A stretch of DNA of 64,000 bases. It comes from Allocoleopsis franciscana PCC 7113 (GTDB taxonomy: Bacteria; Cyanobacteriota; Cyanobacteriia; Cyanobacteriales; Coleofasciculaceae). Within the stretch, counting starts at the first letter, position 1. Each line of letters begins with the position of its first letter. This document shows, piece after piece, positions 1-48,882 of this stretch. The stretch spans positions 1,617,623 to 1,681,622 of the forward strand of contig NC_019738.1 of NCBI RefSeq assembly GCF_000317515.1. The letters are read 5' to 3'. A program made the translations under genes and the position numbers. The notes under the pieces were generated by a model. It saw nothing but the letters and a program-made list of their open reading frames with translations, was not told where the DNA came from and searched no databases.

Positions 1-1442
1 TAGAACGATATGGTTGTATAGCAGGTTATCCCGACGGCACCTTCCGAGGCAACCGAGCTATGACGCGCTATGAATTTGCCGCAGGTTTGAATGCTTGCTT
101 GCAGCAAGTGGAGCGTTTGACTCAGACTGGAAGTCAAGGATTGCTCACTAAAGCAGATTTAGAAACGCTACAACGGTTGGTGGATGAATTCCGATCCGAA
201 TTGACCGTCTTGGGAACCCGTGTCGATACCCTAGAAGGTCGTGTAGCGTTCTTAGAAGACCATCAATTTTCTACAACAACCAAGCTGGTTGGAGAAGCAA
301 TTTTCGGCGTTGCTGATGCATTTGGAGACGATATTGACGGTCAAGTCAATACAGTCCTTCATGACCGGGTTCGGCTCAATTTTCTCACCAGTTTTAGTGG
401 AAAAGACCAGTTACAAATTCGGCTCCAAGCGGGTAATGCTACACCGCTTTTAGCCAGAGCAGGTGTCACGCTCCAAGATGGATCGAGTGGTACCCAAGAA
501 GGGCGATTTACCTATGACGGAGATGCTAATAACAATGTGTTTATCGACATCTTGCGTTACCGTTTCCCTTTGGGAAAAACAGCCACTGTTCAAATTTTGG
601 CGAACAACGCCCTACACCATTACTATGCAGACACCGTTAACCCCTACCTCGAAGGGTTGGCAGGTGGAGAAAATGCCATCTCGCGATTTGCAGAACGTAA
701 CCCCATTTACCGCATTGGTCCCTTTGGCGCGGGTGCGGCTTTAGCAATCAAACCAAGCAATAACTTAAGAGTTGACTTGGGCTACATCTCGAATACAGCG
801 AGCAATCCCGGGTCAGACAATGGTTTATTTAATGGCAATTATTCGGGAATTGCTCAAGTTGTTTTAGGGAATCGGTTTAAGATTGGATTCACTTACGTAC
901 ATGCCTATGATGATGGTAGTAACACCGATGGTGATGGAGCCAATCGTTTTGCTCTCGGTGGTACGGGTACCGCTTTTGCCAATCTCAATCCAGCCCAACT
1001 GGCAAGAGTCACGAATCTTCCAGCCTCGGTCTTAAGTAGACCGGTTGTGAGTAACTCCTACGGGATACAAACTTCTTTGGGATTTAGCCCTAAGTTTCTC
1101 ATTAATGGTTGGGTGGGTTTAACAGAAGCTCGTCTGATTGGTTTAGGGGATGCTGATATTTGGAACTTTGCAGTCGGTTTTGTCTTTCCTGATTTGGGCA
1201 AAAAAGGTAATATTGCTGCGATTGTTGCGGGTGCCGAACCCACTCTCCGAGGGCTAAATGTTCCGGGGGGTACGCGAAACTTCAATCGGGATTTTGCTTA
1301 TCACATTGAAGGGTTTTACAAGTTTAAGGTCAACAAAAACATTTCCATCACTCCAGGTGTGATCTGGTTAACTTCTCCCAATCAAAATGACAGCAACAGT
1401 GATGCGATTATTGGCACGATTAGAACAACGTTCATTTTTTAA
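1..1442 (+). CDS. 5'-truncated SLH-domain/OprB-family outer-membrane porin. The frame is open from position 3; the ATG at 60 is internal.
   Basis: Translation from position 3 reads ERYGCIAGYPDGTFRGNRAMTRYEFAAGLNACLQQ. This is the tail of an SLH motif and is nearly identical to the SLH segments of the two downstream porins. The C-terminal beta-barrel region ends ...ITPGVIWLTSPNQNDSNSDAIIGTIRTTFIF, like the paralogs. Confidence 0.8.
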   Translation, partial: ERYGCIAGYPDGTFRGNRAMTRYEFAAGLNACLQQVERLTQTGSQGLLTKADLETLQRLVDEFRSELTVLGTRVDTLEGRVAFLEDHQFSTTTKLVGEAIFGVADAFGDDIDGQVNTVLHDRVRLNFLTSFSGKDQLQIRLQAGNATPLLARAGVTLQDGSSGTQEGRFTYDGDANNNVFIDILRYRFPLGKTATVQILANNALHHYYADTVNPYLEGLAGGENAISRFAERNPIYRIGPFGAGAALAIKPSNNLRVDLGYISNTASNPGSDNGLFNGNYSGIAQVVLGNRFKIGFTYVHAYDDGSNTDGDGANRFALGGTGTAFANLNPAQLARVTNLPASVLSRPVVSNSYGIQTSLGFSPKFLINGWVGLTEARLIGLGDADIWNFAVGFVFPDLGKKGNIAAIVAGAEPTLRGLNVPGGTRNFNRDFAYHIEGFYKFKVNKNISITPGVIWLTSPNQNDSNSDAIIGTIRTTFIF

Positions 1443-9512: not shown

Positions 9513-10030
9513 AAATTAAGTAACCGAGTGTTTTGAAGTTCTAAGCCAAGGTATACACCAAAACTACTTCCTCACACAGAGAAAAAAGGTCTAGGAATAT
9601 ACGTCTTCATTAGTACAGCTTTACACAAACCTGTCAGCCCTAGTGTTTTAAGACTTAATAAGTTTTGCTTGAGTTTGTTGCTGATGGCAACTTATTGCAA
9701 TAATATGCACAGGGTGTAATACAAGTCATACACTTAGTATGACAGATAGGGGGGTTGACAGTATAAAGGCGCAGATCTGTAGATTACGGCTCTCTTACTT
9801 TCACTGTCTCATCAGTTGCAACCATCTGGGTTATCTACTTCAGCTTCAATCTTATAAGTCTCCAATCCCATTGCGGCTTGGAGTGATAAGTGCATCGCTA
9901 TCGTTACGAGTCGCTTTCCTGAAAGAGTCTACTTAGTCAAGATTGAGGTAACCCTCCGGCGCGACAAACTCCTGTCATCGCCTACAGAGCATACAGAGTC
10001 TAAAGATTATCGACGCGAGACTAAATAAAA

Positions 10031-10777
10031 ATGTTGCTACATTTGTGTACTTGGACAGAGGTTGAGGCTTACCTAAAGCAGTCTTCAGGAATTATTTTGC
10101 CCATTGGCTCCACAGAACAACATGGGCCGACAGGGTTAATTGGCACCGATGCGATTTGTGCAGAAGCGATCGCAAAGGGTGTGGGCGAAGCCACTAACGC
10201 TTTAGTTGGCCCAACCATTAACGTCGGGATGGCACTGCATCATACGGGATTTCCCGGCACGATTAGCTTGCAACCGAGCACGCTCATTCAGCTAGTTCGA
10301 GATTATCTCAGTAGTTTGACCAGAGCCGGATTTACTAAATTTTTCTTTATTAATGGTCACGGGGGTAATATTGCTACGTTGAAGGCGGCTTTTGCCGAGA
10401 GTTACGCTCACTTAACAGACTTAAATATTCCTAATGCAGAACACGTTCAGTGTCGCGTTGCTAATTGGTTTACCTGTGCTTCTGTCTATAAATTAGCGAA
10501 AGAGTTGTATGGCAACCAAGAGGGTTCCCATGCCACACCCAGCGAAATTGCCGTTACTCAGTATCTCTATCCTGAATCGATCAAGGATATCCCCTTACTC
10601 ACCTCTGCCGCTTCCGGACATACGATCTATGGTGCAGTAGACTTTCGACGGCGCTATCCCGATGGACGAATGGGTTCTAACCCATCTTTGGCGACGCCGG
10701 AACATGGAAGACAATTTTATGAGCTGTCGGTGAAGGAATTGAGTAGTTGCTATTTGGAATTTTTGAGTGCGGATTGA
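10031..10777 (+). CDS. Creatininase (creatinine amidohydrolase) family protein
   Basis: 248 aa, with the family's metal-binding motifs (LPIGSTEQHGP, FFINGHGGN). Confidence 0.75.
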   Translation: MLLHLCTWTEVEAYLKQSSGIILPIGSTEQHGPTGLIGTDAICAEAIAKGVGEATNALVGPTINVGMALHHTGFPGTISLQPSTLIQLVRDYLSSLTRAGFTKFFFINGHGGNIATLKAAFAESYAHLTDLNIPNAEHVQCRVANWFTCASVYKLAKELYGNQEGSHATPSEIAVTQYLYPESIKDIPLLTSAASGHTIYGAVDFRRRYPDGRMGSNPSLATPEHGRQFYELSVKELSSCYLEFLSAD

Positions 10778-10780
10778 GGG

Positions 10781-10815
10781 GAATGGTAATCGGTAATCGG
10801 TAATTGGTAATTGGT
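10781..10815. repeat. STRR-like heptanucleotide tandem repeat, (GGTAATY)n about 5 copies
   Basis: The sequence ggtaatcggtaatcggtaattggtaattggtaatgg lies between the convergent creatininase and radA genes. Confidence 0.8.
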
Positions 10816-10889
10816 AATGGCAGTCGCACCCTGAATGATTTGCAATCAGCAAGGATTAATGATAGCGAGTCGTTGAAGCCATCACTCCT

Positions 10890-12473
10890 TCACTCTTCGC
10901 TCATTTCCTCATCACCATCATCCGCAAAATTCTGGCGTAAACCTCCAGGCAAGGCAGCAATAATAGCGTCGAGTACTCTAGCTACCGGGATGATTTCTAA
11001 ACCCATATCGGGTAGAGTTTGCCCTTTGGGAATAATCGCTCGCTTGAAGCCTAACTTGGCGGCTTCTTTCAGGCGGAGTTCCATTTGAGAAACCAGCCGT
11101 ACCTGTCCACCCAATCCCACTTCGCCGATCATCACAGTACGGGGATCGACAATGCGATCGCGAAAACTGGCAACGACGGCGATCGCAACCCCCAAATCCG
11201 CCGCCGGTTCTTCAACGCCCAACCCGCCTGATGTGGCAACGTAGGCATCTAACTTCGATAGGGGAATCCCCACTCGCTTTTCCAACACCGCGAGAATTTG
11301 TTGCAATCGGTTATAGTCTACACCGGTGGTGGATCGACGCGGTGAACCATAACTCGCCGGACTGACTAGCGCCTGCAACTCCACCACCAGTGGACGGGTG
11401 CCTTCACAAGCCACAACGGTAGCTGTGCCGGGACTACTTTCATCTCGGTTGCCTAAAAACAGTTCAGAGGGGTTAAGGACTTCCTGCAAGCCTTTATCCA
11501 CCATTTCAAAAATGCCGATTTCGTGGGTGGCACCAAAGCGGTTTTTCACGGAACGGAGGAGGCGATGAGAGGCAAAGCGATCGCCTTCAAAATACAACAC
11601 GGTATCCACCAAGTGTTCTAATACCCTAGGGCCTGCGATCGCGCCTTCTTTGGTAACGTGTCCCACAATCAGCAGCGTGATGTTCTCGCGTTTTGCTACC
11701 TGCATGAGCGCAGATGTACATTCTCGCACCTGCGCCACCGAACCAGGCGCAGACGTTAAAGCGGCAAAGTACAACGTCTGAATACTATCAATCACAGCCA
11801 CCTGCGGCTTGAGAGACTCCAACTCCCGCAGCACTTCTTCTAAATCGGTTTCTGGCAGCACATAGAGATTTAAATCCGGATTGGGTTGGGTGGGTTTCTC
11901 TGGTTTAGCTTGGTTCACGGAACCGGGAGCATCCTGGTGTCCGTTTTGGGATGACTTCCCTCGCTTTTTTGGGGCACTGCTCGATGCCTCTTCCTCAATG
12001 GGTTTAGTCCCCACACCTAGCCGTGAGGCTCGTAGCTTGACCTGTTGTCCTGATTCCTCGGCACAAACATAAAGGATACGATGGTTCTGCGCTAGCTGAT
12101 TGGCTACTTGAAGAAGTAGCGTCGATTTGCCAATTCCTGGATCGCCACCAATCAACACCAATGAGCCAGGAACAATCCCTCCCCCCAGTACGCGATCAAG
12201 TTCAATGTAACCGGACGCAAACCGCATCTGGACATTGTCGGAAATTTCCGAGAACTTCAAAGACGATCTCGGTTGCGCTGGTCCTTTGCTTGGTGACTTG
12301 CGATCAGAACGGGTATTAGATTGCCAACCGCCCCGATTAATATTGAGAGGAGTCGAAGTTAAAACTTCTTCTTCTAGGGAGTTGTAGGTGCCGCAGGCTG
12401 AACATTTGCCAAACCATTGTGAGAAGTGTTCCCCGCATTGGTTACATATATATACAGATTTAGTCTTTGCCAT
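10890..12473 (-). CDS. radA: DNA repair protein RadA/Sms
   Basis: 527 aa. It has an N-terminal C4 zinc ribbon (CNQCGEHFSQWFGKCSACGTYN), Walker A (GGDPGIGKST), the KNRFG motif and a Lon-like C-terminal domain. It also contains a ~60-aa low-complexity insert (EEEASSSAPKKRGKSSQNGHQDAPGSVNQAKPEKPTQPNPDLN). Confidence 0.9.
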   Translation of the reverse strand: MAKTKSVYICNQCGEHFSQWFGKCSACGTYNSLEEEVLTSTPLNINRGGWQSNTRSDRKSPSKGPAQPRSSLKFSEISDNVQMRFASGYIELDRVLGGGIVPGSLVLIGGDPGIGKSTLLLQVANQLAQNHRILYVCAEESGQQVKLRASRLGVGTKPIEEEASSSAPKKRGKSSQNGHQDAPGSVNQAKPEKPTQPNPDLNLYVLPETDLEEVLRELESLKPQVAVIDSIQTLYFAALTSAPGSVAQVRECTSALMQVAKRENITLLIVGHVTKEGAIAGPRVLEHLVDTVLYFEGDRFASHRLLRSVKNRFGATHEIGIFEMVDKGLQEVLNPSELFLGNRDESSPGTATVVACEGTRPLVVELQALVSPASYGSPRRSTTGVDYNRLQQILAVLEKRVGIPLSKLDAYVATSGGLGVEEPAADLGVAIAVVASFRDRIVDPRTVMIGEVGLGGQVRLVSQMELRLKEAAKLGFKRAIIPKGQTLPDMGLEIIPVARVLDAIIAALPGGLRQNFADDGDEEMSEE

Positions 12474-35309: not shown

Positions 35310-36392
35310 TTAAGCAATCGCTGTACGATTACGATGGGGAGAAACGTTCTGTAATGCCCCTAAAGTGGTTGGCCCAGCAATGCCATTGACACTTAATCCT
35401 CTAGATCTCTGAAATTTTCTCACGGCTGCCTCCGTCAACTCCCCATAGTAGCCAGTCACAGGCCCGTTATAAACACCCACAGCTCTCAATCGATTTTGCA
35501 GTTGGCTCACAGCCTGACCCTGGCTACCTCGCCGAAGTATAGTTGTCGAGTTACTGCCAAGATTACCCTGTAATGCCGCCAAGGTCGTTGGGTCAGCAAT
35601 GCCATTCACCCTCAGTCTCCGAGAACGCTGAAAATCTCTGACGGCGGACTCCGTTAACTCACTATAAAATCCAGTGATTGGCCCTTGGTAGAAACCTAAA
35701 GCGCTTAACCGATTTTGCAGTTGAGTGACAGCCGAACCACTGTTACCAAACTGTAGCTGTGTGCCTGTCAGGATGGCACCGATGTCAGAATTACCCCCTA
35801 AAGCTGACAAGGTATTGGAGCCAGCCATCCCATCGATTGATAATCCCTTGGCTTGCTGAAATTTCCTCACCGCTTCCTCGGTTAACCCACCATAGTATCC
35901 CGTCACCGGTCCTTGGTAGAATCCTTGGGCTTTTAAGGTAGTTTGCAACTGGGTGACAGAGGTTCCCCGGCTGCCGCGTCGCAACAAGATATCGATGGGC
36001 AGGCTACTCCTACCGCCAGATGTGCCATATAAAACAGATATGGTGTTGGGTCCTGCAATCCCATCCACAGGTAATCCCTGATCTTGCTGAAATCGTCTAA
36101 CGGCTTCCTGGGTGGTCGATCCGTAGAATCCAGTAATCTGTCCTTTGTAGAAGCCAGCGGCTGTCAATTTTTGCTGAAGAGCCGTGACTTGTGAACCCTG
36201 ATTGCCTGTTTGAAGGGCTAAAGCGCTACTACTGGCAATCCCCAACACCGCTAAGGAGATGGCTATTGCGCCCAAATGTATCCAGGCGGAACTCGGCAGT
36301 TTTTTCCAGTTGAACTGCTCAAAGCACCTGATTTGTGTGCTTTCGAGGCTTTCAGAAGATGCCGCCAAATGTACGTAAGCAAGTGTTTCCAT
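35310..36392 (-). CDS. Secreted protein with four or five peptidoglycan-binding (PG_binding_1) repeats
   Basis: The repeat unit is LQ..L...GFY.G..TG.Y...T..AV..FQ...GL..DG.AG..T. Confidence 0.75.
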   Translation of the reverse strand: METLAYVHLAASSESLESTQIRCFEQFNWKKLPSSAWIHLGAIAISLAVLGIASSSALALQTGNQGSQVTALQQKLTAAGFYKGQITGFYGSTTQEAVRRFQQDQGLPVDGIAGPNTISVLYGTSGGRSSLPIDILLRRGSRGTSVTQLQTTLKAQGFYQGPVTGYYGGLTEEAVRKFQQAKGLSIDGMAGSNTLSALGGNSDIGAILTGTQLQFGNSGSAVTQLQNRLSALGFYQGPITGFYSELTESAVRDFQRSRRLRVNGIADPTTLAALQGNLGSNSTTILRRGSQGQAVSQLQNRLRAVGVYNGPVTGYYGELTEAAVRKFQRSRGLSVNGIAGPTTLGALQNVSPHRNRTAIA

Positions 36393-36440: not shown

Positions 36441-37586
36441 TTATTGAAGATTTAGACCCGAAACGGATTGCCCAATCAGGAATAAAGCGGCGATCGCACC
36501 ACCCAACCACATTAAGACACAATACCGTGTCAGTCCTAAGGCTTGGTCAATTTTTTCTCCTGTAATCGGGTAAACCGGGTCACCCAACAGGGGTTTAGAT
36601 TTTGCCACACCCTGATACCAGTTCGTGCCTCCCACTTGAACGCCCAAAATGGCTGCATAAGCGCACTCACTCCAGCCGGAATTAGGGCTGGGGTCTTTAA
36701 TGGCATCACGGAGGCACAGACGCCAGACTTGTTGGGGTTTTCCGGACAGCAGCGCCAGGGTAGTTACGGTTAATCGACAGGGTAACCAGGTGAGGTAGTC
36801 TTCGAGTTTGGCGCTAAACCAACCCAAATCGGTGTAAGGCTCGACACGATAGCCGACCATGGAATCTAGGGTACTGGCGGCTTTGTAAGCAAGAGCCAGG
36901 GGAACACTCCCGACTCCAGGCAAAAAGGCTCCGATAATGCCATAGAACAAGGGCGCTGTTACCCCATCGGTCGCATTTTCCGTCACCGTCTCTAAAATCG
37001 CTCGCAGGATTTCTGGTTCGTCTAGTTTTTCGGTATCTCGACCGACATACTGACTTAATTGAGAACGCGCCTGAATTAATTGCCCAGCGGCTAAGGGTTG
37101 TAATACATCAGCGGCAGCATTTCGTAAACTTCGACCTGCCAAACAAGTGGCAAGTAAAATGCTTTCTACCACAACACCCACCCAGGGATGAATCCAATTT
37201 GCACCTCGAACGATTAGCCAGCCAGCCAGTCCGCTGCCTAGGATGAGTCCAACGGCTAATAGGATGCCAGCGAAACGGCGTTGCCACTGAATAACAGCAG
37301 AATTTTCTTCAGGGATGTTAGTCGAAGCCTCTTGCTCTGTACTAGGAGTTGTATCTTTCCCTTCTTTTGAGGTGACCGGCTCTTGCTCTTGTTTCCGATT
37401 CCATTTTTGGATTACAAACTGAGTGTATTGAGAAATGACCCACCCCATGACTCGCACGGGATGAGGCCAGCCCCAAGGGTCACCTATGATGTAATCCAAA
37501 CTAGCCGCCATCAGTAAAACAGTAGCTGTGGGAAGTGAGTTTGCCGCGATGATGCTGGGCACAGCCGCAAAGCTTTTCGCATCCAT
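36441..37586 (-). CDS. cobD: Cobalamin biosynthesis protein CobD/CbiB (adenosylcobinamide-phosphate synthase)
   Basis: 381 aa, with the N-terminal motif DYIIGDPWGWPHPVRVMGW and a polytopic membrane core. It carries a ~50-aa low-complexity insert (KQEQEPVTSKEGKDTTPSTEQEASTNIPEENS). Confidence 0.8.
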   Translation of the reverse strand: MDAKSFAAVPSIIAANSLPTATVLLMAASLDYIIGDPWGWPHPVRVMGWVISQYTQFVIQKWNRKQEQEPVTSKEGKDTTPSTEQEASTNIPEENSAVIQWQRRFAGILLAVGLILGSGLAGWLIVRGANWIHPWVGVVVESILLATCLAGRSLRNAAADVLQPLAAGQLIQARSQLSQYVGRDTEKLDEPEILRAILETVTENATDGVTAPLFYGIIGAFLPGVGSVPLALAYKAASTLDSMVGYRVEPYTDLGWFSAKLEDYLTWLPCRLTVTTLALLSGKPQQVWRLCLRDAIKDPSPNSGWSECAYAAILGVQVGGTNWYQGVAKSKPLLGDPVYPITGEKIDQALGLTRYCVLMWLGGAIAALFLIGQSVSGLNLQ

Positions 37587-40121: not shown

Positions 40122-41756
40122 TCAGTTAGATTTTTGGGTGATCAACACCCAGCTAGAGTCGTTGGTTTTACCCACCACTACAGCTGGCTCTAAATGCAAT
40201 CGATCGCGGGTTTTATTGTCCAGTAATAAGTAGAGTGGTTTTTCTTGTTTCCAGTGCTGTTTGATTTCTGAATCAGAGGCTGGAATAACTTCGCGTTCGC
40301 TATAAAACTTCAGAGCAGGACGTTGCCCAGGCAAAGAGGCGTAAATCTTTTGTTGTGCGAGGGTACCCCGTTTGAGGATGGCAGCAACCTCTTTAACCGG
40401 ATAAGCCGCTTCTAATTCCCAACTCCAGTAAGGAGAGGTCATAAAAAGCAGCAGTGAGATATACATCCCCCAAAACAGAATTAGAATAAATTGCAGATCA
40501 CGTCGAGCCACTAGCACCGCCGAGACGCTCATTGTCAAAGCCAAAGAAGCCAAAATGACCGACAAGGAGCGGTCAGTTGTGGGTAAAATAGCGAAGACAA
40601 TGCTACCGGCGATCGCACCTAAACCCATAACAATCAAGCCTATGCTCCAGAGACGGGGATAGGATTGGCGTTTCGGCCCATTCCAGAGTTCCGCCAGATA
40701 AGCTCCACCCGCCAGTGCTAAAGCTGGGTAAACAGGCAAGACATACCAGGACAACTGGTTGACCAATACCAAAATCGCCAAAAGATAAAGGCTAGACCAA
40801 ACGAGTACTAATTTAGCCCAGCCCCAAATCCGATTATCCCAAGCGAGTCGCAACCCGTAAGGCCAGAAAAGTAACCAGGGGACTGAGAATTTTAAGACTT
40901 GGATCAGGTGATACCCAACCAGGTTCTGGGAAGCCGTCGTCGGTGCCCCAAAACTCCCCACAGCAGAGCTGACGAGAGATTTGGAAAGGAACATCTCAGG
41001 GTTAGAACTCAGCCATATCCCACCCCAAGCCAAGCCAGGGGTACTCCCCAAGAGCAAACCGATCCACCAATACCCTGAGGTTAAGAGCCTGGGAGTATCC
41101 CACGCCAGAAACCCGAAGGCAATACCCAAGAGTAAAAGGGTCAGGGGGATACCTTGAGTTAGGCCAATCAACCCTAATCCCATCCCGATACCGACTGACC
41201 AACGGAAGTCACGGCGCGATCGCAGCACACTCCACATCACGAGCATGACAAAGCACAGCGTTGCCCCATCCACACTCGCCAGACGCCCCCAACAGACTAC
41301 GGGTAAAAACGTCAGATAAATTAAGCTCGAAAAAATCGCGCTCTGACGGGAGGGAAAGACTTCTCGTCCAATACTATACAAAAGCGGTACGGACAGGGCG
41401 CTGAGGATTGCACCCGGTAAACGTGTCATCCATTCATTAAAACCACCAATTTTATAAGCTCCCGCAATGAGCAACTCAAGGAGAGACGGCTCTTGCAGAT
41501 AAGGCTTACTTCCCAGCTTGGGATGAAGCCACTGCCAAATCTCTAATGGTGCTTTTGTGATTTCACGAGCTGCCAGGGCAACTGAGCCTTCACCCCCCTC
41601 CAAGAGGGGCGGACTGCCCAAATTAATCCCAAATAAGAGCAGCGCGGCTAAAAGTAATCCTACAATCCACAGTCCTTCAACCCAGCGTTCAGTTTTACGA
41701 CTTCTATTACCTGAACGACCCCAAGTAAAAGTTTGATGATCCATCTCTACCAACAA
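40122..41756 (-). CDS. GT39/ArnT-like (PMT_2) dolichyl-phosphate-mannose-type glycosyltransferase
   Basis: 544 aa. It is a polytopic membrane protein with an N-terminal PMT_2-type region (GEGSVALAAREITKAP..., conserved Asp-containing first loop). Confidence 0.65.
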   Translation of the reverse strand: MLVEMDHQTFTWGRSGNRSRKTERWVEGLWIVGLLLAALLLFGINLGSPPLLEGGEGSVALAAREITKAPLEIWQWLHPKLGSKPYLQEPSLLELLIAGAYKIGGFNEWMTRLPGAILSALSVPLLYSIGREVFPSRQSAIFSSLIYLTFLPVVCWGRLASVDGATLCFVMLVMWSVLRSRRDFRWSVGIGMGLGLIGLTQGIPLTLLLLGIAFGFLAWDTPRLLTSGYWWIGLLLGSTPGLAWGGIWLSSNPEMFLSKSLVSSAVGSFGAPTTASQNLVGYHLIQVLKFSVPWLLFWPYGLRLAWDNRIWGWAKLVLVWSSLYLLAILVLVNQLSWYVLPVYPALALAGGAYLAELWNGPKRQSYPRLWSIGLIVMGLGAIAGSIVFAILPTTDRSLSVILASLALTMSVSAVLVARRDLQFILILFWGMYISLLLFMTSPYWSWELEAAYPVKEVAAILKRGTLAQQKIYASLPGQRPALKFYSEREVIPASDSEIKQHWKQEKPLYLLLDNKTRDRLHLEPAVVVGKTNDSSWVLITQKSN

Positions 41757-45462: not shown

Positions 45463-46191
45463 GTGAATCCCGTACCCGTTGGCACACTCTACGGTATAAG
45501 CGTCGGACCGGGCGATCCGGAACTGATCACCCTCAAAGGACTGCGTCTGTTAAAGCAATCACCTGTATTGGCTTTTCCTGAGGGTATTCAAGGTAAGCCA
45601 GGAGTGGCTCAACAAATTGTCGCTCCATGGCTGGGAAGGGATCAAGTGCAACTCGCCTTGGCCTTTCCTTATGTGCAGGATATGGAGACTCTGACTCAAG
45701 CGTGGCAAATTGCAGCGAAGCAGGTTTGGCATTATCTCCAGTTCGGTCAAGATGTGGCGTTTGTGTGTGAAGGAGATGTCAGTTTTTATAGCACCTTTAC
45801 TTATTTAGCCCAGACGCTGCAACAGCTACATCCTGAAAGTAGGGTGCAGACGGTACCCGGAGTGTGTTCGCCCATGGCGGCAGCGTCAGTTTTAGGCATA
45901 CCCTTAACCGTGAGGCAAGAGCGCCTGGTTGTACTCCCGGCTCTTTATAATGTGGGGGAACTGGAAACAATTTTAGACTGGGCAGATGTCGTGGTACTTA
46001 TGAAAGTCAGTTCAGTCTACCCGGAGGTGTGGGAAGTCCTACGGCGGCATCAGCTATTGGATCATGCTTGTGTGGTAGAACGAGCCACCCTACCAGAGCA
46101 AGTGATTTATGCAGATTTACGCGATCGCCCCACCTTGAAATTGCCCTACTTTTCTCTACTGATCGTAAAAGTTTCTCAATCGCGTCACTAA
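45463..46191 (+). CDS. cobI: Precorrin-2 C20-methyltransferase (CobI/CbiL)
   Basis: 242 aa, with the TP_methylase N-terminus GTLYGISVGPGDPELITLKGLRLL. Confidence 0.8.
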   Translation: MNPVPVGTLYGISVGPGDPELITLKGLRLLKQSPVLAFPEGIQGKPGVAQQIVAPWLGRDQVQLALAFPYVQDMETLTQAWQIAAKQVWHYLQFGQDVAFVCEGDVSFYSTFTYLAQTLQQLHPESRVQTVPGVCSPMAAASVLGIPLTVRQERLVVLPALYNVGELETILDWADVVVLMKVSSVYPEVWEVLRRHQLLDHACVVERATLPEQVIYADLRDRPTLKLPYFSLLIVKVSQSRH

Positions 46192-46372
46192 AGGTGTAGT
46201 CTTTGTTTTGTAGCAATACAACTCAAAAACACGGGACTTAATCGCGCTCTTAAAAGAAGCCGTACTCGACTATCATTAAAAGTCAAACTCGTTATTCTTG
46301 GCGGATACTGCTGTAAACGGATTGAACTAACAAACTGTCTGCAATGACCCAGCGGAGTGAACTGTAACTGCT

Positions 46373-48271
46373 ATGTCTTACGCATCTTCTTCCAAAAGCT
46401 TCCCGGACTTCCTCAAAACTTTACCCCATAAGTTGAGTCAGCCAACAGCTATTGCTGTTATCGCTTCTGTCGGTATTCATGCCGCTCTAGGATTCTCTTT
46501 ACCTTACTTTTCAACTTCTTCCCAGGAAAAGCCCAAGCCGATCCGGAATGTCCAACTGCTGGAATTAAAACCAGAAGAATTGAGCCGTGTCCCTCCGTCT
46601 CCTCTACCTTTAGATCCCCTATCACCCTCGCTCAATCAGCAGCTAACGCCGTTGTCACCCTCTGGGTCTTCCACTTTCCCGTCGCTGCCATCCTTCTCTT
46701 CTAACACTCCGTCTCTTGGGGATTTACCCTCATTTGACCCTCTGCCCTCCCTGGGCGGCTCTGGGAACGTTCCGGGGCGAGCCACTAACCTCGGTAAGCT
46801 AGCCCGTAACAGCCCTGTACGGACTCAGATCAAAAGAAACCCAGGAGAGCCTCCCCTGCCATCGGAGGTGTTTAATAGTCAAGGGGGAAAATCTTCTGCC
46901 AATCCTCAGTTTAAGATTGCTACGGGTTCTAAGATAACGAGTAGCCCGAATCTGCGTCCGGATGTGGGTGGCTTGACCAGAGGACTGCTCCCTGCCAATG
47001 ACAATCTGCCCCTATTAGAGAGGTTCAATTCCAACCAAACCTCTCGGTCATTCCCTCCACCGCCTCCAGCCGGAGCGATCGCCGTTAATCCGGGTGTAAC
47101 AGGGACACCGTTTCAAAATCAAGTCGGAGCCACTCCGTCTATGTCAGCTTTTGGCCAAACAACCCAGGCAACTGCTCCGGCTTCAGGTCAGGGAAGTTTG
47201 ACAAGCGAAACAGCGACTAGGAATTTCAACGCTTTCGTCCAACGTCAAGAAGATTGGAAAAAGCGCCATCAAGTGAGTGGCGAACTGCAAGAACTGCCCC
47301 TAACCGTTGGCAAGTATCCCGAAAAAGCTCGTGCTGCCGGAGTAGACCGTGGCAGCCTTCAGGTTAATTGGATGGTCGATAAAAACGGCAACATCATCGC
47401 CGACAGCCTGGAGATCATTGGGAGTTCTGGAGATGGAGTTTTTGACGAGGAAGCGCTCGCCGCCGTTAGAAAGCTTTCCATTCCAGCCACAGGTCAAGAC
47501 AAGGCTTACACGGTTCGGGTTATATTTTATGACGATAGCGCAGTTCCTGGGAGTGTAACAGGTTCACCCAACTCAACGGATGGGAAAAATTCAGCCGATC
47601 GCCAAAACTTACCGCAGCGACTCACCCCAACCGATCGCCAAAACTCACCGCAGCGACTTAGCCCAGCAGAGCAATTAACTCCTCCTGAACAGCGAAACTC
47701 ACCGGAGTGGTCTACCCCCAGTGAGCGAAAAATCCCATCAGTTCGCCCTAATTCTTCAGAACAGCCCAATCCAACGGAAGGGAAAAACCCAACTGAGCAA
47801 CCCAATTCCTCACAACAACCCAACCCAACGGAGGAGAAAAAACCAACACAGCCGTTAACTCCTCCAAAAGGAGAAAACTCAACAGAACGTTCCACTCCAA
47901 CGGAGCAAATTTCTCCTCCCAAACGGGAAAACTCAACAGAACGCTCCACCCCAACGGAGCAAATTTCTCCTCCCAAACGGGAAAACTCAACAGAACGTTC
48001 CACCCCAACGGAGCAAATTTCTCCTCCCAAACGGGAAAACTCAACAGAACGTTCCACCCCAACGGAGCGAATCTCTCCTCCCAAACGGGAAAACTCAACA
48101 GAACGTTCCACCCCAACGGAGCGAATCTCTCCTCCCAAACGGGAAAACTCAACGGAACCGCGCAGCTCATCGGAATCACAAAATTCTGAAAAGCCTCAAA
48201 AATTACCACAACCGCAAAGTTCCGAAAAGCCTCAACGATTGCCGCAACTGCCCAATTCAGTCAAACCTTAA
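46373..48271 (+). CDS. TonB-like energy-transducer protein with an atypical repetitive C-terminal extension
   Basis: 632 aa. It has an N-terminal transmembrane anchor, a Pro/Ser-rich spacer and a TonB_C-like domain (YPEKARAAGVDRGSLQVNWMVDKNGNI...IIGSSGDGVFDEEALAAVRKLSIP). About 250 aa of S/T/P/E-rich sequence follows, including 18-aa tandem repeats. Confidence 0.65.
   Translation: MSYASSSKSFPDFLKTLPHKLSQPTAIAVIASVGIHAALGFSLPYFSTSSQEKPKPIRNVQLLELKPEELSRVPPSPLPLDPLSPSLNQQLTPLSPSGSSTFPSLPSFSSNTPSLGDLPSFDPLPSLGGSGNVPGRATNLGKLARNSPVRTQIKRNPGEPPLPSEVFNSQGGKSSANPQFKIATGSKITSSPNLRPDVGGLTRGLLPANDNLPLLERFNSNQTSRSFPPPPPAGAIAVNPGVTGTPFQNQVGATPSMSAFGQTTQATAPASGQGSLTSETATRNFNAFVQRQEDWKKRHQVSGELQELPLTVGKYPEKARAAGVDRGSLQVNWMVDKNGNIIADSLEIIGSSGDGVFDEEALAAVRKLSIPATGQDKAYTVRVIFYDDSAVPGSVTGSPNSTDGKNSADRQNLPQRLTPTDRQNSPQRLSPAEQLTPPEQRNSPEWSTPSERKIPSVRPNSSEQPNPTEGKNPTEQPNSSQQPNPTEEKKPTQPLTPPKGENSTERSTPTEQISPPKRENSTERSTPTEQISPPKRENSTERSTPTEQISPPKRENSTERSTPTERISPPKRENSTERSTPTERISPPKRENSTEPRSSSESQNSEKPQKLPQPQSSEKPQRLPQLPNSVKP
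47873..48165 (+). repeat. Five near-perfect 54-bp tandem repeats plus a partial sixth, encoding ENSTERSTPTE(Q/R)ISPPKR, inside the TonB-like CDS
   Basis: The repeats were read directly from the sequence. The copies differ only at 1 to 3 positions (caaatt/cgaatc). Confidence 0.9.
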
Positions 48272-48471
48272 AACAGGGAAATCTTTGCTTGAGCGGAATC
48301 GATCACTTGTCCCCGGCGTGGGTGCTAACCCATCCCTCCCCATTGCGGGGAGGGATCAAGATTTCTTTCGCTCAGATTAGAGAGATTGAGCCGGAGTTTA
48401 TACTAGGCGGGACATTTGACTTTTGTAAGAACTCTAATGATTAGCCTGCTCTCAATGCATCTCACAAAGTA

Positions 48472-48882
48472 TCAATTGAGAGATGGGTTTTTGGGTTGAA
48501 TCTCTAACTCTTGATAGCCAGTACTTTCATCCATGGTTCTAAGAAAGACGAAATCTTCGCTGGTGCCGATGACGATTTCAGCCGTTGTATAGATTATGCA
48601 ACCCTCTAGCAAATGTCCACCGAGGGTTTTACCCTGTCTATTCGATAGAGAAATATGTATATGAATTCCGTGGGTGGAAAGAGTACCGACTAAGGAGACA
48701 ATCTCGAATTGTTGCTTGAAAACTTGAGAGTAATTCTGGCTGGCAAAACGTAGCGTTGCCTGTTTGAGGCTGCCAACACCGGTAAGGATAAAACCAGCTT
48801 GAATATTATTCTGTTGGACGAAATGTATTAGGCTTTGTCTTAGATCTTCATCAGGTTTTAAGCGAATCGCGAAAATATTCAT
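48472..48882 (-). CDS. DUF296 / PPC-domain protein (predicted DNA-binding, PD1-like)
   Basis: 136 aa, with the motif pattern ...FEIVSLVGTLSTHGIHIHISLSNRQGKTLGGHLLEGCIIYTTAEIVI. Confidence 0.5.
   Translation of the reverse strand: MNIFAIRLKPDEDLRQSLIHFVQQNNIQAGFILTGVGSLKQATLRFASQNYSQVFKQQFEIVSLVGTLSTHGIHIHISLSNRQGKTLGGHLLEGCIIYTTAEIVIGTSEDFVFLRTMDESTGYQELEIQPKNPSLN

Follow-up and report, generated by a model that had tools for sequence, protein, structure and literature searches.

An internal TonB domain followed by a repeat-rich tail

The gene examined here occupies positions 46373..48271 on the plus strand (stop codon included) of a 64,000-nucleotide window of Allocoleopsis franciscana PCC 7113 (contig NC_019738.1, positions 1,617,623 to 1,681,622); the window is the whole stretch of DNA that was analyzed, and features lie on its plus strand unless stated otherwise. 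Taken from the list of open reading frames (ORFs), the gene encodes a TonB-family protein of 632 amino acids (aa), which a protein search found to be 100% identical to the NCBI entry 'energy transducer TonB [Allocoleopsis franciscana]'. TonB is the textbook protein whose C-terminal domain is its working tip. The conserved family to which the window protein belongs has that tip in mid-protein, between two disordered spacers of which the distal one changes length quickly.

The N-terminal portion of the protein is organized as in a conventional TonB. A membrane anchor read from the sequence (aa 24-46; 46442..46510), of which an AlphaFold2 (AF2) model forms aa 24-38 as a helix, carries the motif S32-x3-H36-x6-L43(-x3-S47), whose spacing is that of the SHLS motif in E. 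coli TonB and TolA, where S-x3-H-x6-L couples the protein to the ExbB/ExbD-type proton-driven motor. Neither family alignment (A1 or A2) shows any variation at S32, H36 or L43, and S47 is not conserved. The anchor leads into a proline-rich, predicted periplasmic linker (aa 47-277; 46511..47203), characterized by its composition (P 14.3%, S 13.2% and L 10.9% over aa 48-313), by a predicted local distance difference test score (pLDDT) below 50 across most of its length in the AF2 model, and by the ratio of nonsynonymous to synonymous substitution rates (dN/dS).

In the AF2 model, which was built on 14 homologs, only aa 278-390 are folded (47204..47542; pLDDT 85-94), with a helix at 278-298 followed by a beta-alpha-beta-beta-alpha-beta TonB_C unit. 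Within this region the Pfam TonB_C model (PF03544) matches aa 314-383 (47312..47521) at 38.3 bits against a gathering cut-off of 24.6, and the NCBIfam model TIGR01352 (tonB_Cterm) scores 37.0 bits against 27.1. The YP motif is present as Y315-P316 (KYPEKA), with P316 invariant in alignment A1. A sequence search of the PDB with the domain gave marginal matches (E>=0.04), making a fold comparison necessary. In Foldseek searches against the PDB, 15 of the 16 best matches were C-terminal domains of TonB, HasB or FusB, headed by TonB in complex with FhuA (2grx_C; template modeling (TM) score 0.73, root-mean-square deviation 2.3 A over 78 columns) and including TonB in complex with BtuB (2gsk_B; TM 0.71). 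Profile search and fold comparison therefore agree with the TonB_C assignment made in the initial annotation of this locus. An identity as TolA was considered and rejected, as TolA ranked only 16th (TM 0.45; sequence E about 0.5), the linker is proline-rich and non-helical, and no tol genes lie nearby.

In canonical TonB the domain ends the polypeptide, and most non-family matches in a HMMER search with the domain indeed stop 10-30 residues short of the C-terminus; non-family examples are P0042 (309 aa, matched to residue 302) and P0092 (719 aa, matched to residue 710). Here 242 in-frame residues follow the domain (aa 391-632; 47543..48268), in keeping with the S/T/P/E-rich tail of some 250 aa described initially. 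The tail contains P 18.6%, S 15.7%, E 12.0%, T 11.2% and R 8.7%, so that S, T and P together make up 45.5%; hydrophobic residues contribute 7.9%, and 36 K and R residues stand beside 32 D and E residues. By its composition it is a proline-rich, well-mixed polyampholyte, and it is predicted to be disordered, with pLDDT below 50 over aa 391-619. A PEP-CTERM, LPXTG or other C-terminal sorting signal was sought by inspection and rejected, the tail having neither a terminal hydrophobic helix nor such a motif.

Tandem Repeats Finder detects a 54-bp period in the tail (5.6 copies, 96% matches, score 530) at 47859..48158, within which five full in-frame units, ENSTERSTPTE[Q/R]ISPPKR, span 47873..48142. 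The five near-identical 54-bp repeats noted at the outset are thus present, but they do not encode five identical peptides: three units read ENSTERSTPTEQISPPKR and two read ENSTERSTPTERISPPKR. Pairwise differences range from 0 to 3 nt, not from 1 to 3 nt as first stated, with units 4 and 5 identical; of the variable sites, three are synonymous and one yields the Q/R alternative. A sixth unit begins at 48143 (ENSTE) before diverging into a conserved extreme C-terminus (aa 591-632; 48143..48268), ENSTEPRSSSESQN-SEKPQKLPQPQS-SEKPQRLPQLPN-SVKP, defined by identity and dN/dS. A 36-bp tandem repeat of two copies (DRQNLPQRLTPT / DRQNSPQRLSPA; 91% matches in Tandem Repeats Finder) lies at 47595..47665. 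In the protein, a 12-aa unit occurs twice near the tail start, and a 12-aa motif, SEKPQ[KR]LPQ (SEKPQKLPQPQS / SEKPQRLPQLPN), occurs twice at the tail end; with these doublets on either side of the block of five 18-aa units, the whole tail is repeat-derived. On the minus strand, every 54-bp unit also contains a hairpin with an 8-bp stem (GCTCCGTTGGGGTGGA; 47891..48125), and these hairpins could favor replication slippage. Two minus-strand ORFs (47527..48138 and 47748..48209, together 47527..48209) are contained entirely within the sense frame, which orthologs conserve at dN/dS below 1, and for this reason they are taken to be by-products of the repeats and not genes, the same view as in the initial annotation.

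The tail as a length-variable and conserved family trait

In a comparison with relatives, the tail proved to be present in every complete one found. A full-protein search gave 15 homologs, most of them aligned over 100% of the query; a profile search added Coleofasciculus, Lyngbya aestuarii, Microcoleus FACHB strains, Mastigocladopsis, Nostoc piscinale and Calothrix; and a scan of genome contigs returned only a Stenomitos metagenome-assembled genome (MAG). Among the matches of the HMMER search with the domain, all those in a single stretch that have an 'MSYAS...' N-terminus carry the domain internally. The residues after it number 60-314 in 22 members, with P, S, T and E (or Q and N) dominant and basic residues about equal to acidic ones, and every complete member found, from Coleofasciculaceae, Lyngbya, Microcoleus and Nostocales, has a repeat tail rich in P, S, T and E. 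The C-terminal tail had been called unusual; this is true relative to canonical TonB, but in filamentous cyanobacteria the whole family has such a tail.

The repeat units themselves are far less constant than the presence of the tail. The tandem units of distant members are unrelated (a 29-aa unit in seven copies in P0188, a 12-aa unit in seven copies in P0165, EKPQGSTERPTS and ERPSAEKPPASP runs in P0159, P0161 and P0162). Among closer relatives, the unit variants are lineage-specific, with ISPPKR found only in the window, TTPPKR in P0002 and ENAS in P0003. Mean divergence between units is 2.0 nt per 54 within the window array, compared with 8.3-13.7 nt within the arrays of relatives and 11.5-13.7 nt between arrays, and the 'SIPLEQL' unit common to P0002, P0003, P0004 and the metagenome locus L017 is missing from the window. 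This low divergence and the missing unit indicate that the array of PCC 7113 arose by recent amplification of a single unit type, in line with the very recent expansion initially suggested.

Copy number likewise varies, as had been anticipated. The window has 5 units, P0004 about 4, P0002 8-9 and P0003 about 11; the close trio P0159, P0161 and P0162 (524, 545 and 565 aa) is unequal in copy number; and the metagenome allele L017, near-identical to P0003 elsewhere, is one 18-aa unit shorter, all these relatives deriving from short-read metagenome assemblies. Copy number thus differs among close alleles, as in length-variable in-frame tandem-repeat proteins. Of the 14 loci from a metagenome scan with the repeat junction, only L017 was a TonB tail, and the other 13 were unrelated and matched by chance. 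Repeat periods in orthologs were 54 bp (8.6, 3.7 and 2.2 copies) and 69 bp (3.8 copies), and L005 and L001 contain an equivalent of the 36-bp repeat of the window. All periods (54, 36, 69 and 18 bp) are divisible by 3. A change in copy number would therefore alter the length of the protein and not its expression, and a phase-variable (on/off) contingency locus was rejected because units of these sizes keep the frame.

Conservation within the tail is highest over its last 42 residues, where identity is 88-95% to the nearest relatives and 55-83% to more distant clade members; the repeat block reaches 28-63% against the latter. When the window gene was compared with five orthologs, dN/dS was 0.15-0.31 in the non-repeat tail and 0.05-0.42 over the last 42 codons, values which indicate that the tail is translated and constrained, with its non-repeat part under purifying selection; the linker gave about the same range as the non-repeat tail, 0.21-0.25. 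In the Nostocales the tail ends in a different element, KLIxxLR, in which L469, L473 and R474 are at least 90% conserved and L469 and L473 are invariant. As both this element and the terminal 42 residues of the window clade are conserved, the pattern of a variable spacer with a conserved end holds in both branches. A motif of the type F[VI][ED]KLRR or KLIxxLR was also seen near the tail end of P0014, P0015, P0017, P0023, P0026, P0037 and P0164, and in the Nostocales alignment A3.

Domain exchange, Anabaena orthologs and genomic neighborhood

Strikingly, the folded domain is the segment of the window protein least conserved relative to its nearest relatives. Its identity to the domains of P0002, P0003 and P0004 is 38-40%, as against 78-95% for the N-terminus, linker and tail; conversely, P0005 and P0006 match the window protein at 81% in the domain but only at 41-67% in linker and tail. 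Sliding-window DNA identity places approximate breakpoints on both sides. At 47152..47212, identity to P0002/P0004 drops from 74-94% to 47-66% and identity to P0005 rises to 90-92%; at 47522..47542, identity to P0002/P0004 returns to 79-86% and that to P0005 falls to 53-75%. Synonymous divergence (dS) is likewise discordant between the domain and its flanks. These sharp switches at the domain borders show that the TonB_C module has been exchanged as a cassette between lineages. A chimeric assembly is an unlikely source of the pattern, since one domain type occurs in four independent assemblies and the other in at least five. A third domain variant was observed in P0010, upon a P0006-like N-terminus.

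A search with the Nostoc piscinale member identified 484 Nostocales homologs, nearly all annotated as 'hypothetical protein' and with no Pfam match on record. The member of the Anabaena PCC 7120 type is BAB77779.1 (P0317, 491 aa, 'hypothetical protein'), encoded at 10001..11476 of locus L024; its orthology to the window gene is indicated by a common N-terminus, synteny and the conserved leader GAGTGAAC-N9-ATGTCTTACG. In L024, the screening primers published for sjdR have matches at 328 and 1742, on either side of a gene for 218 aa (sjdR, 720..1376), and primers for tonB2, tonB3 and tonB4 have no match in this locus. The BAB77779.1 gene thus lies about 8.6 kb downstream of sjdR (alr0248), and from the primer matches we conclude that it is a fifth, unstudied TonB-like gene of Anabaena; orthology with TonB2, TonB3 or TonB4 (all3585, all5036 and alr5329) was rejected on the same grounds. 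Position and accession arithmetic suggest that BAB77779.1 is probably alr0255, which two papers list as a heterocyst-clade-specific gene of unknown function, with 8.5-fold and 4.9-fold induction upon nitrogen step-down, and as a predicted target of Yfr1; the Yfr1 complement (GTGTGAGGAGT) was not found in the start region of the Anabaena ortholog. For the A. variabilis ortholog, an AF2 model based on 60 sequences has a folded domain at 275-378, disorder over 385-465 (about 80 aa) and a terminal helix at 466-483 (pLDDT about 85) that carries L469, L473 and R474.

The start region is also conserved. A 5' leader, or translation-initiation region, was delineated by cross-locus comparison at 46349..46372 (agcGGAGTGAACtgtaactgct); it is near-identical at every Coleofasciculaceae-type locus and can still be recognized in the Nostoc and Anabaena orthologs. 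These approximately 24 nt 5' of the start, together with the first codons (46349..46382, GGAGTGAACTGTAACTGCT-ATGTCTTACG), are almost invariant family-wide, the Nostoc/Anabaena version being GAGTGAACGATAACAGYT-ATGTCTTACG, and the remaining intergenic sequence diverges. The leader may be a post-transcriptional control site. An Rfam scan of the whole window, conserved leader included, gave no family at gathering score, so that neither a cobalamin riboswitch nor another known RNA is evident near the gene. A promoter and terminator scan of 46100..48500 found no sigma-70-like promoter, and its sole terminator-like calls were the minus-strand hairpins within the repeat units. A G+C-rich hairpin, CCCTCCCC-ATTGC-GGGGAGGG, lies at 48335..48356, 64 nt 3' of the stop codon; its weak T-run explains why the scan missed it, and it may end the transcript.

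Immediately upstream is cobI, as initially stated (NF004614, 388 bits against a cut-off of 251), followed farther upstream by genes for a cation/proton antiporter with TrkA_N, a PMT-family GT-C glycosyltransferase, AbrB-like and Rrf2 proteins, and CobD; the downstream genes encode PCC-domain, DUF4090 and response-regulator proteins. Relatives of 44-71% identity have the same gene order, as do Lyngbya aestuarii and Microcoleus FACHB-SPT15. At the Nostoc piscinale and Anabaena loci only the antiporter and a hydrolase are still adjacent, and cobI does not stand beside the Nostoc orthologs. As the block consists of unrelated genes, the adjacency of cobI reflects conserved synteny and shows no link to B12. 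The glycosyltransferase gene, of the PMT/PMT_2 family in Pfam (544 aa; 40122..41756, minus strand), is a kept neighbor in Coleofasciculaceae, Lyngbya and Microcoleus FACHB and is missing from the Nostoc/Anabaena loci. Several further observations concern this neighborhood. A 360-aa protein with four PG_binding_1 repeats adjoins cobD (35310..36392 and 36441..37586, both on the minus strand). The block of CobD, Rrf2, AbrB-like, PMT, antiporter, cobI and TonB genes is also present in Lyngbya aestuarii. In the relative L004 (the P0007 contig), a MotA_ExbB-family gene lies at 11160..11819, 1.2 kb downstream of the TonB gene and after an LmeA-domain gene; it was not seen in the window or at the other loci.

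Interpretation and comparison with known systems

Taken together, these features incline us, with modest confidence, to regard the protein as a TonB-family envelope protein with an internal docking domain, in which the tail is a length-variable spacer presenting a conserved terminal motif; the interpretation given in the initial annotation is thus partly supported. The helix with the S-x3-H-x6-L motif would anchor the protein in the cytoplasmic membrane, and the disordered proline-rich linker of about 230 aa would cross the wide cyanobacterial periplasm to present the TonB_C domain, with its intact YP motif, as the docking module. Motifs and fold suggest that the protein would couple to ExbBD and dock onto a Ton box. 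Beyond the domain, the 242-residue disordered, charge-balanced tail may act as a second spacer of changeable length, whose repeat block would grow and shrink in frame through replication slippage or unequal recombination between the 54-bp units, this mode of evolution being permitted because only composition (and solubility) would be constrained. The terminal 42-residue motif would be the selected element, contacting a partner away from the TonB_C domain, and would take the form of two SEKPQ[KR]LP copies in the window clade and of a KLR-type helix in Nostocales and several other branches. Such a role for the tail end is suggested by the pattern of conservation.

Several findings weigh against this interpretation. 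The TonB_C domain is divergent, with only 154 matches at E<=1e-3 in an exhaustive HMMER domain search of 1.84 billion representatives, and the Nostocales orthologs fall below Pfam thresholds with a weak fold match to TonB C-terminal domains (TM 0.44-0.56). The Anabaena ortholog is not TonB3, the experimentally validated siderophore TonB. The KLR helix of other branches is absent in the window clade, which has the SEKPQ[KR]LP doublet instead, and no segment of the tail confidently contacts the TonB_C domain in the AF2 model, where docking was sought. Finally, a Pfam scan revealed no gene for ExbB, ExbD or a TonB-dependent transporter among the ORFs it covered, which comprised all those from 35.3 to 49.9 kb and 10 other large ones and left about 20 ORFs of at least 180 aa in 1-34 kb unscanned; the argument for ExbBD coupling consequently comes from motifs only.

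Some of these points fit a different proposal, namely that the protein does not energize transporters but belongs to a TolA-like or tether-like, envelope-spanning family of filamentous cyanobacteria, whose TonB_C-like module and tail end would bind peptidoglycan, outer-membrane proteins or septal components. Apart from one Stenomitos MAG, the named sources from the profile and Nostocales searches are all filamentous taxa; Nostocales members have a degenerate domain and a 'hypothetical' annotation; the positional ortholog in Anabaena, P0317, is none of TonB2, TonB3 and TonB4 and lies 8.6 kb downstream of sjdR; no transporter or exbBD gene appears among the scanned window ORFs; and other Anabaena TonB-like proteins have non-transport roles (PMC8262864, PMC8597729). 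However, the window protein retains the SHL and YP motifs and a TonB_C match above threshold, its fold is closer to TonB (TM 0.73) than to TolA (TM 0.45), its linker is proline-rich and disordered and not helical like that of TolA, and the relative L004 has a MotA_ExbB gene 1.2 kb downstream, so that we regard this proposal as rather doubtful. It also seems unlikely that the tail is a mucin-like, O-glycosylated periplasmic region modified by the GT-C (PMT-family) enzyme and thereby stiffened, protected from proteases or embedded in a peptidoglycan or polysaccharide layer. The S+T+P content of 45.5% would suit such a role, and a PMT/PMT_2 gene is part of the conserved neighborhood, also in L002-L005, L007 and L008. 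Yet that block holds many unrelated housekeeping genes, and the glycosyltransferase gene lies 4.6 kb upstream on the opposite strand, with the antiporter gene and cobI between, and shares no operon with the TonB gene. Its sole NCBIfam match, ArnT (lipid A), is far below threshold (29.6 bits against 567), the enzyme is absent near the Nostoc/Anabaena orthologs, which have tails too, and a literature search turned up no glycan evidence.

That the tail has no function, and is merely tolerated low-complexity sequence drifting by slippage, might be supposed from the free change of units and copy number between lineages and from the unrelated unit sequences of distant members. We consider this improbable, given that all complete members, which span at least two cyanobacterial orders, keep a 60-314-aa tail alike in composition and charge balance, that none of the orthologs has a premature stop, and that the non-repeat tail evolves at a dN/dS of 0.15-0.31 with its terminal motif conserved. 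Near-identical 54-bp repeats are also hard to assemble, and the exact copy number needs reads to confirm it, but a collapsed, expanded or chimeric repeat block is most improbable as an account of the array, which takes up just about 300 bp within a 7.47-Mb contig and has homologous counterparts, matching in position and frame, in independent assemblies of relatives.

The reading as a TonB-family protein with an internal docking domain points to an extra contact, or to a means of setting length, in the thick cyanobacterial envelope, as the tip is internal and the distal spacer variable. A bolder and tentative version, which we hold to be an outside chance, is that the proteins with the 'MSYAS...' N-terminus form a distinct envelope-spanning family specific to filamentous cyanobacteria, with an exchangeable partner-binding cassette and a tail that serves as an evolvable ruler. 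If so, at least two deeply diverged domain types recombine between lineages while the tail sets the reach of the terminal motif, and the protein would match envelope geometry or partner repertoire, or evade piracy of TonB by phages or bacteriocins, in roles beyond siderophore uptake. Cassette exchange and the unstudied Anabaena ortholog raise the locus above ordinary annotation. The swapped cassette amounts to a natural experiment in how specific TonB_C and its partners are for each other, and the fifth TonB-like gene of Anabaena, a genetic model, is directly amenable to knockout. In practical terms, repeat copy number could serve as a strain marker, and the locus may be prone to assembly error.

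Relative to canonical TonB (E. coli; PF03544, TIGR01352), the window protein has the same single-pass anchor spacing, proline-rich spacer, YP motif and TonB_C fold. It differs in a linker about twice as long, in the 242 disordered residues after the domain, in the lack of adjacent exbBD and in having a domain that behaves as a recombining cassette. Four TonB-like proteins have been described in Anabaena (PMC8262864, PMC8597729): schizokinen uptake requires TonB3 (all5036), envelope phenotypes are associated with TonB2 and TonB4, and TonB1 (SjdR) gives septal peptidoglycan its shape. In PMC8597729, the Fig. 1 legend names a 'C-terminal extension' for TonB2, TonB3 and TonB4, which share with the window protein the order of transmembrane segment, linker, TonB-box-binding region and C-terminal extension; in contrast, they are non-orthologous to it, and neither repeats nor a function are reported for their extensions. 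In the literature we searched, such cyanobacterial TonB extensions are drawn but nowhere analyzed further. TolA resembles the window protein in its SHLS-type anchor, its span across the periplasm and its TonB-like C-terminal fold (cited in PMC8597729), but domain II of TolA is a long helix where the window protein has a disordered proline-rich linker, and the gene has no tol-pal context. SjdR (Alr0248, formerly TonB1) is likewise membrane-anchored with a periplasmic low-complexity region rich in P, T, S and Q, and differs in its cytosolic N-terminal extension, its length of only 218 aa and its lack of a TonB_C domain. In the streptococcal alpha C protein and the fungal Als adhesins, in-frame tandem repeats vary in length by slippage or recombination. 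The window protein resembles proteins of this type in its near-identical in-frame repeats, its variable copy number, which in those proteins differs between strains, and its arrangement of a spacer with a functional end; they are surface-exposed and under immune or adhesion-related selection, whereas the window tail is predicted to be periplasmic.

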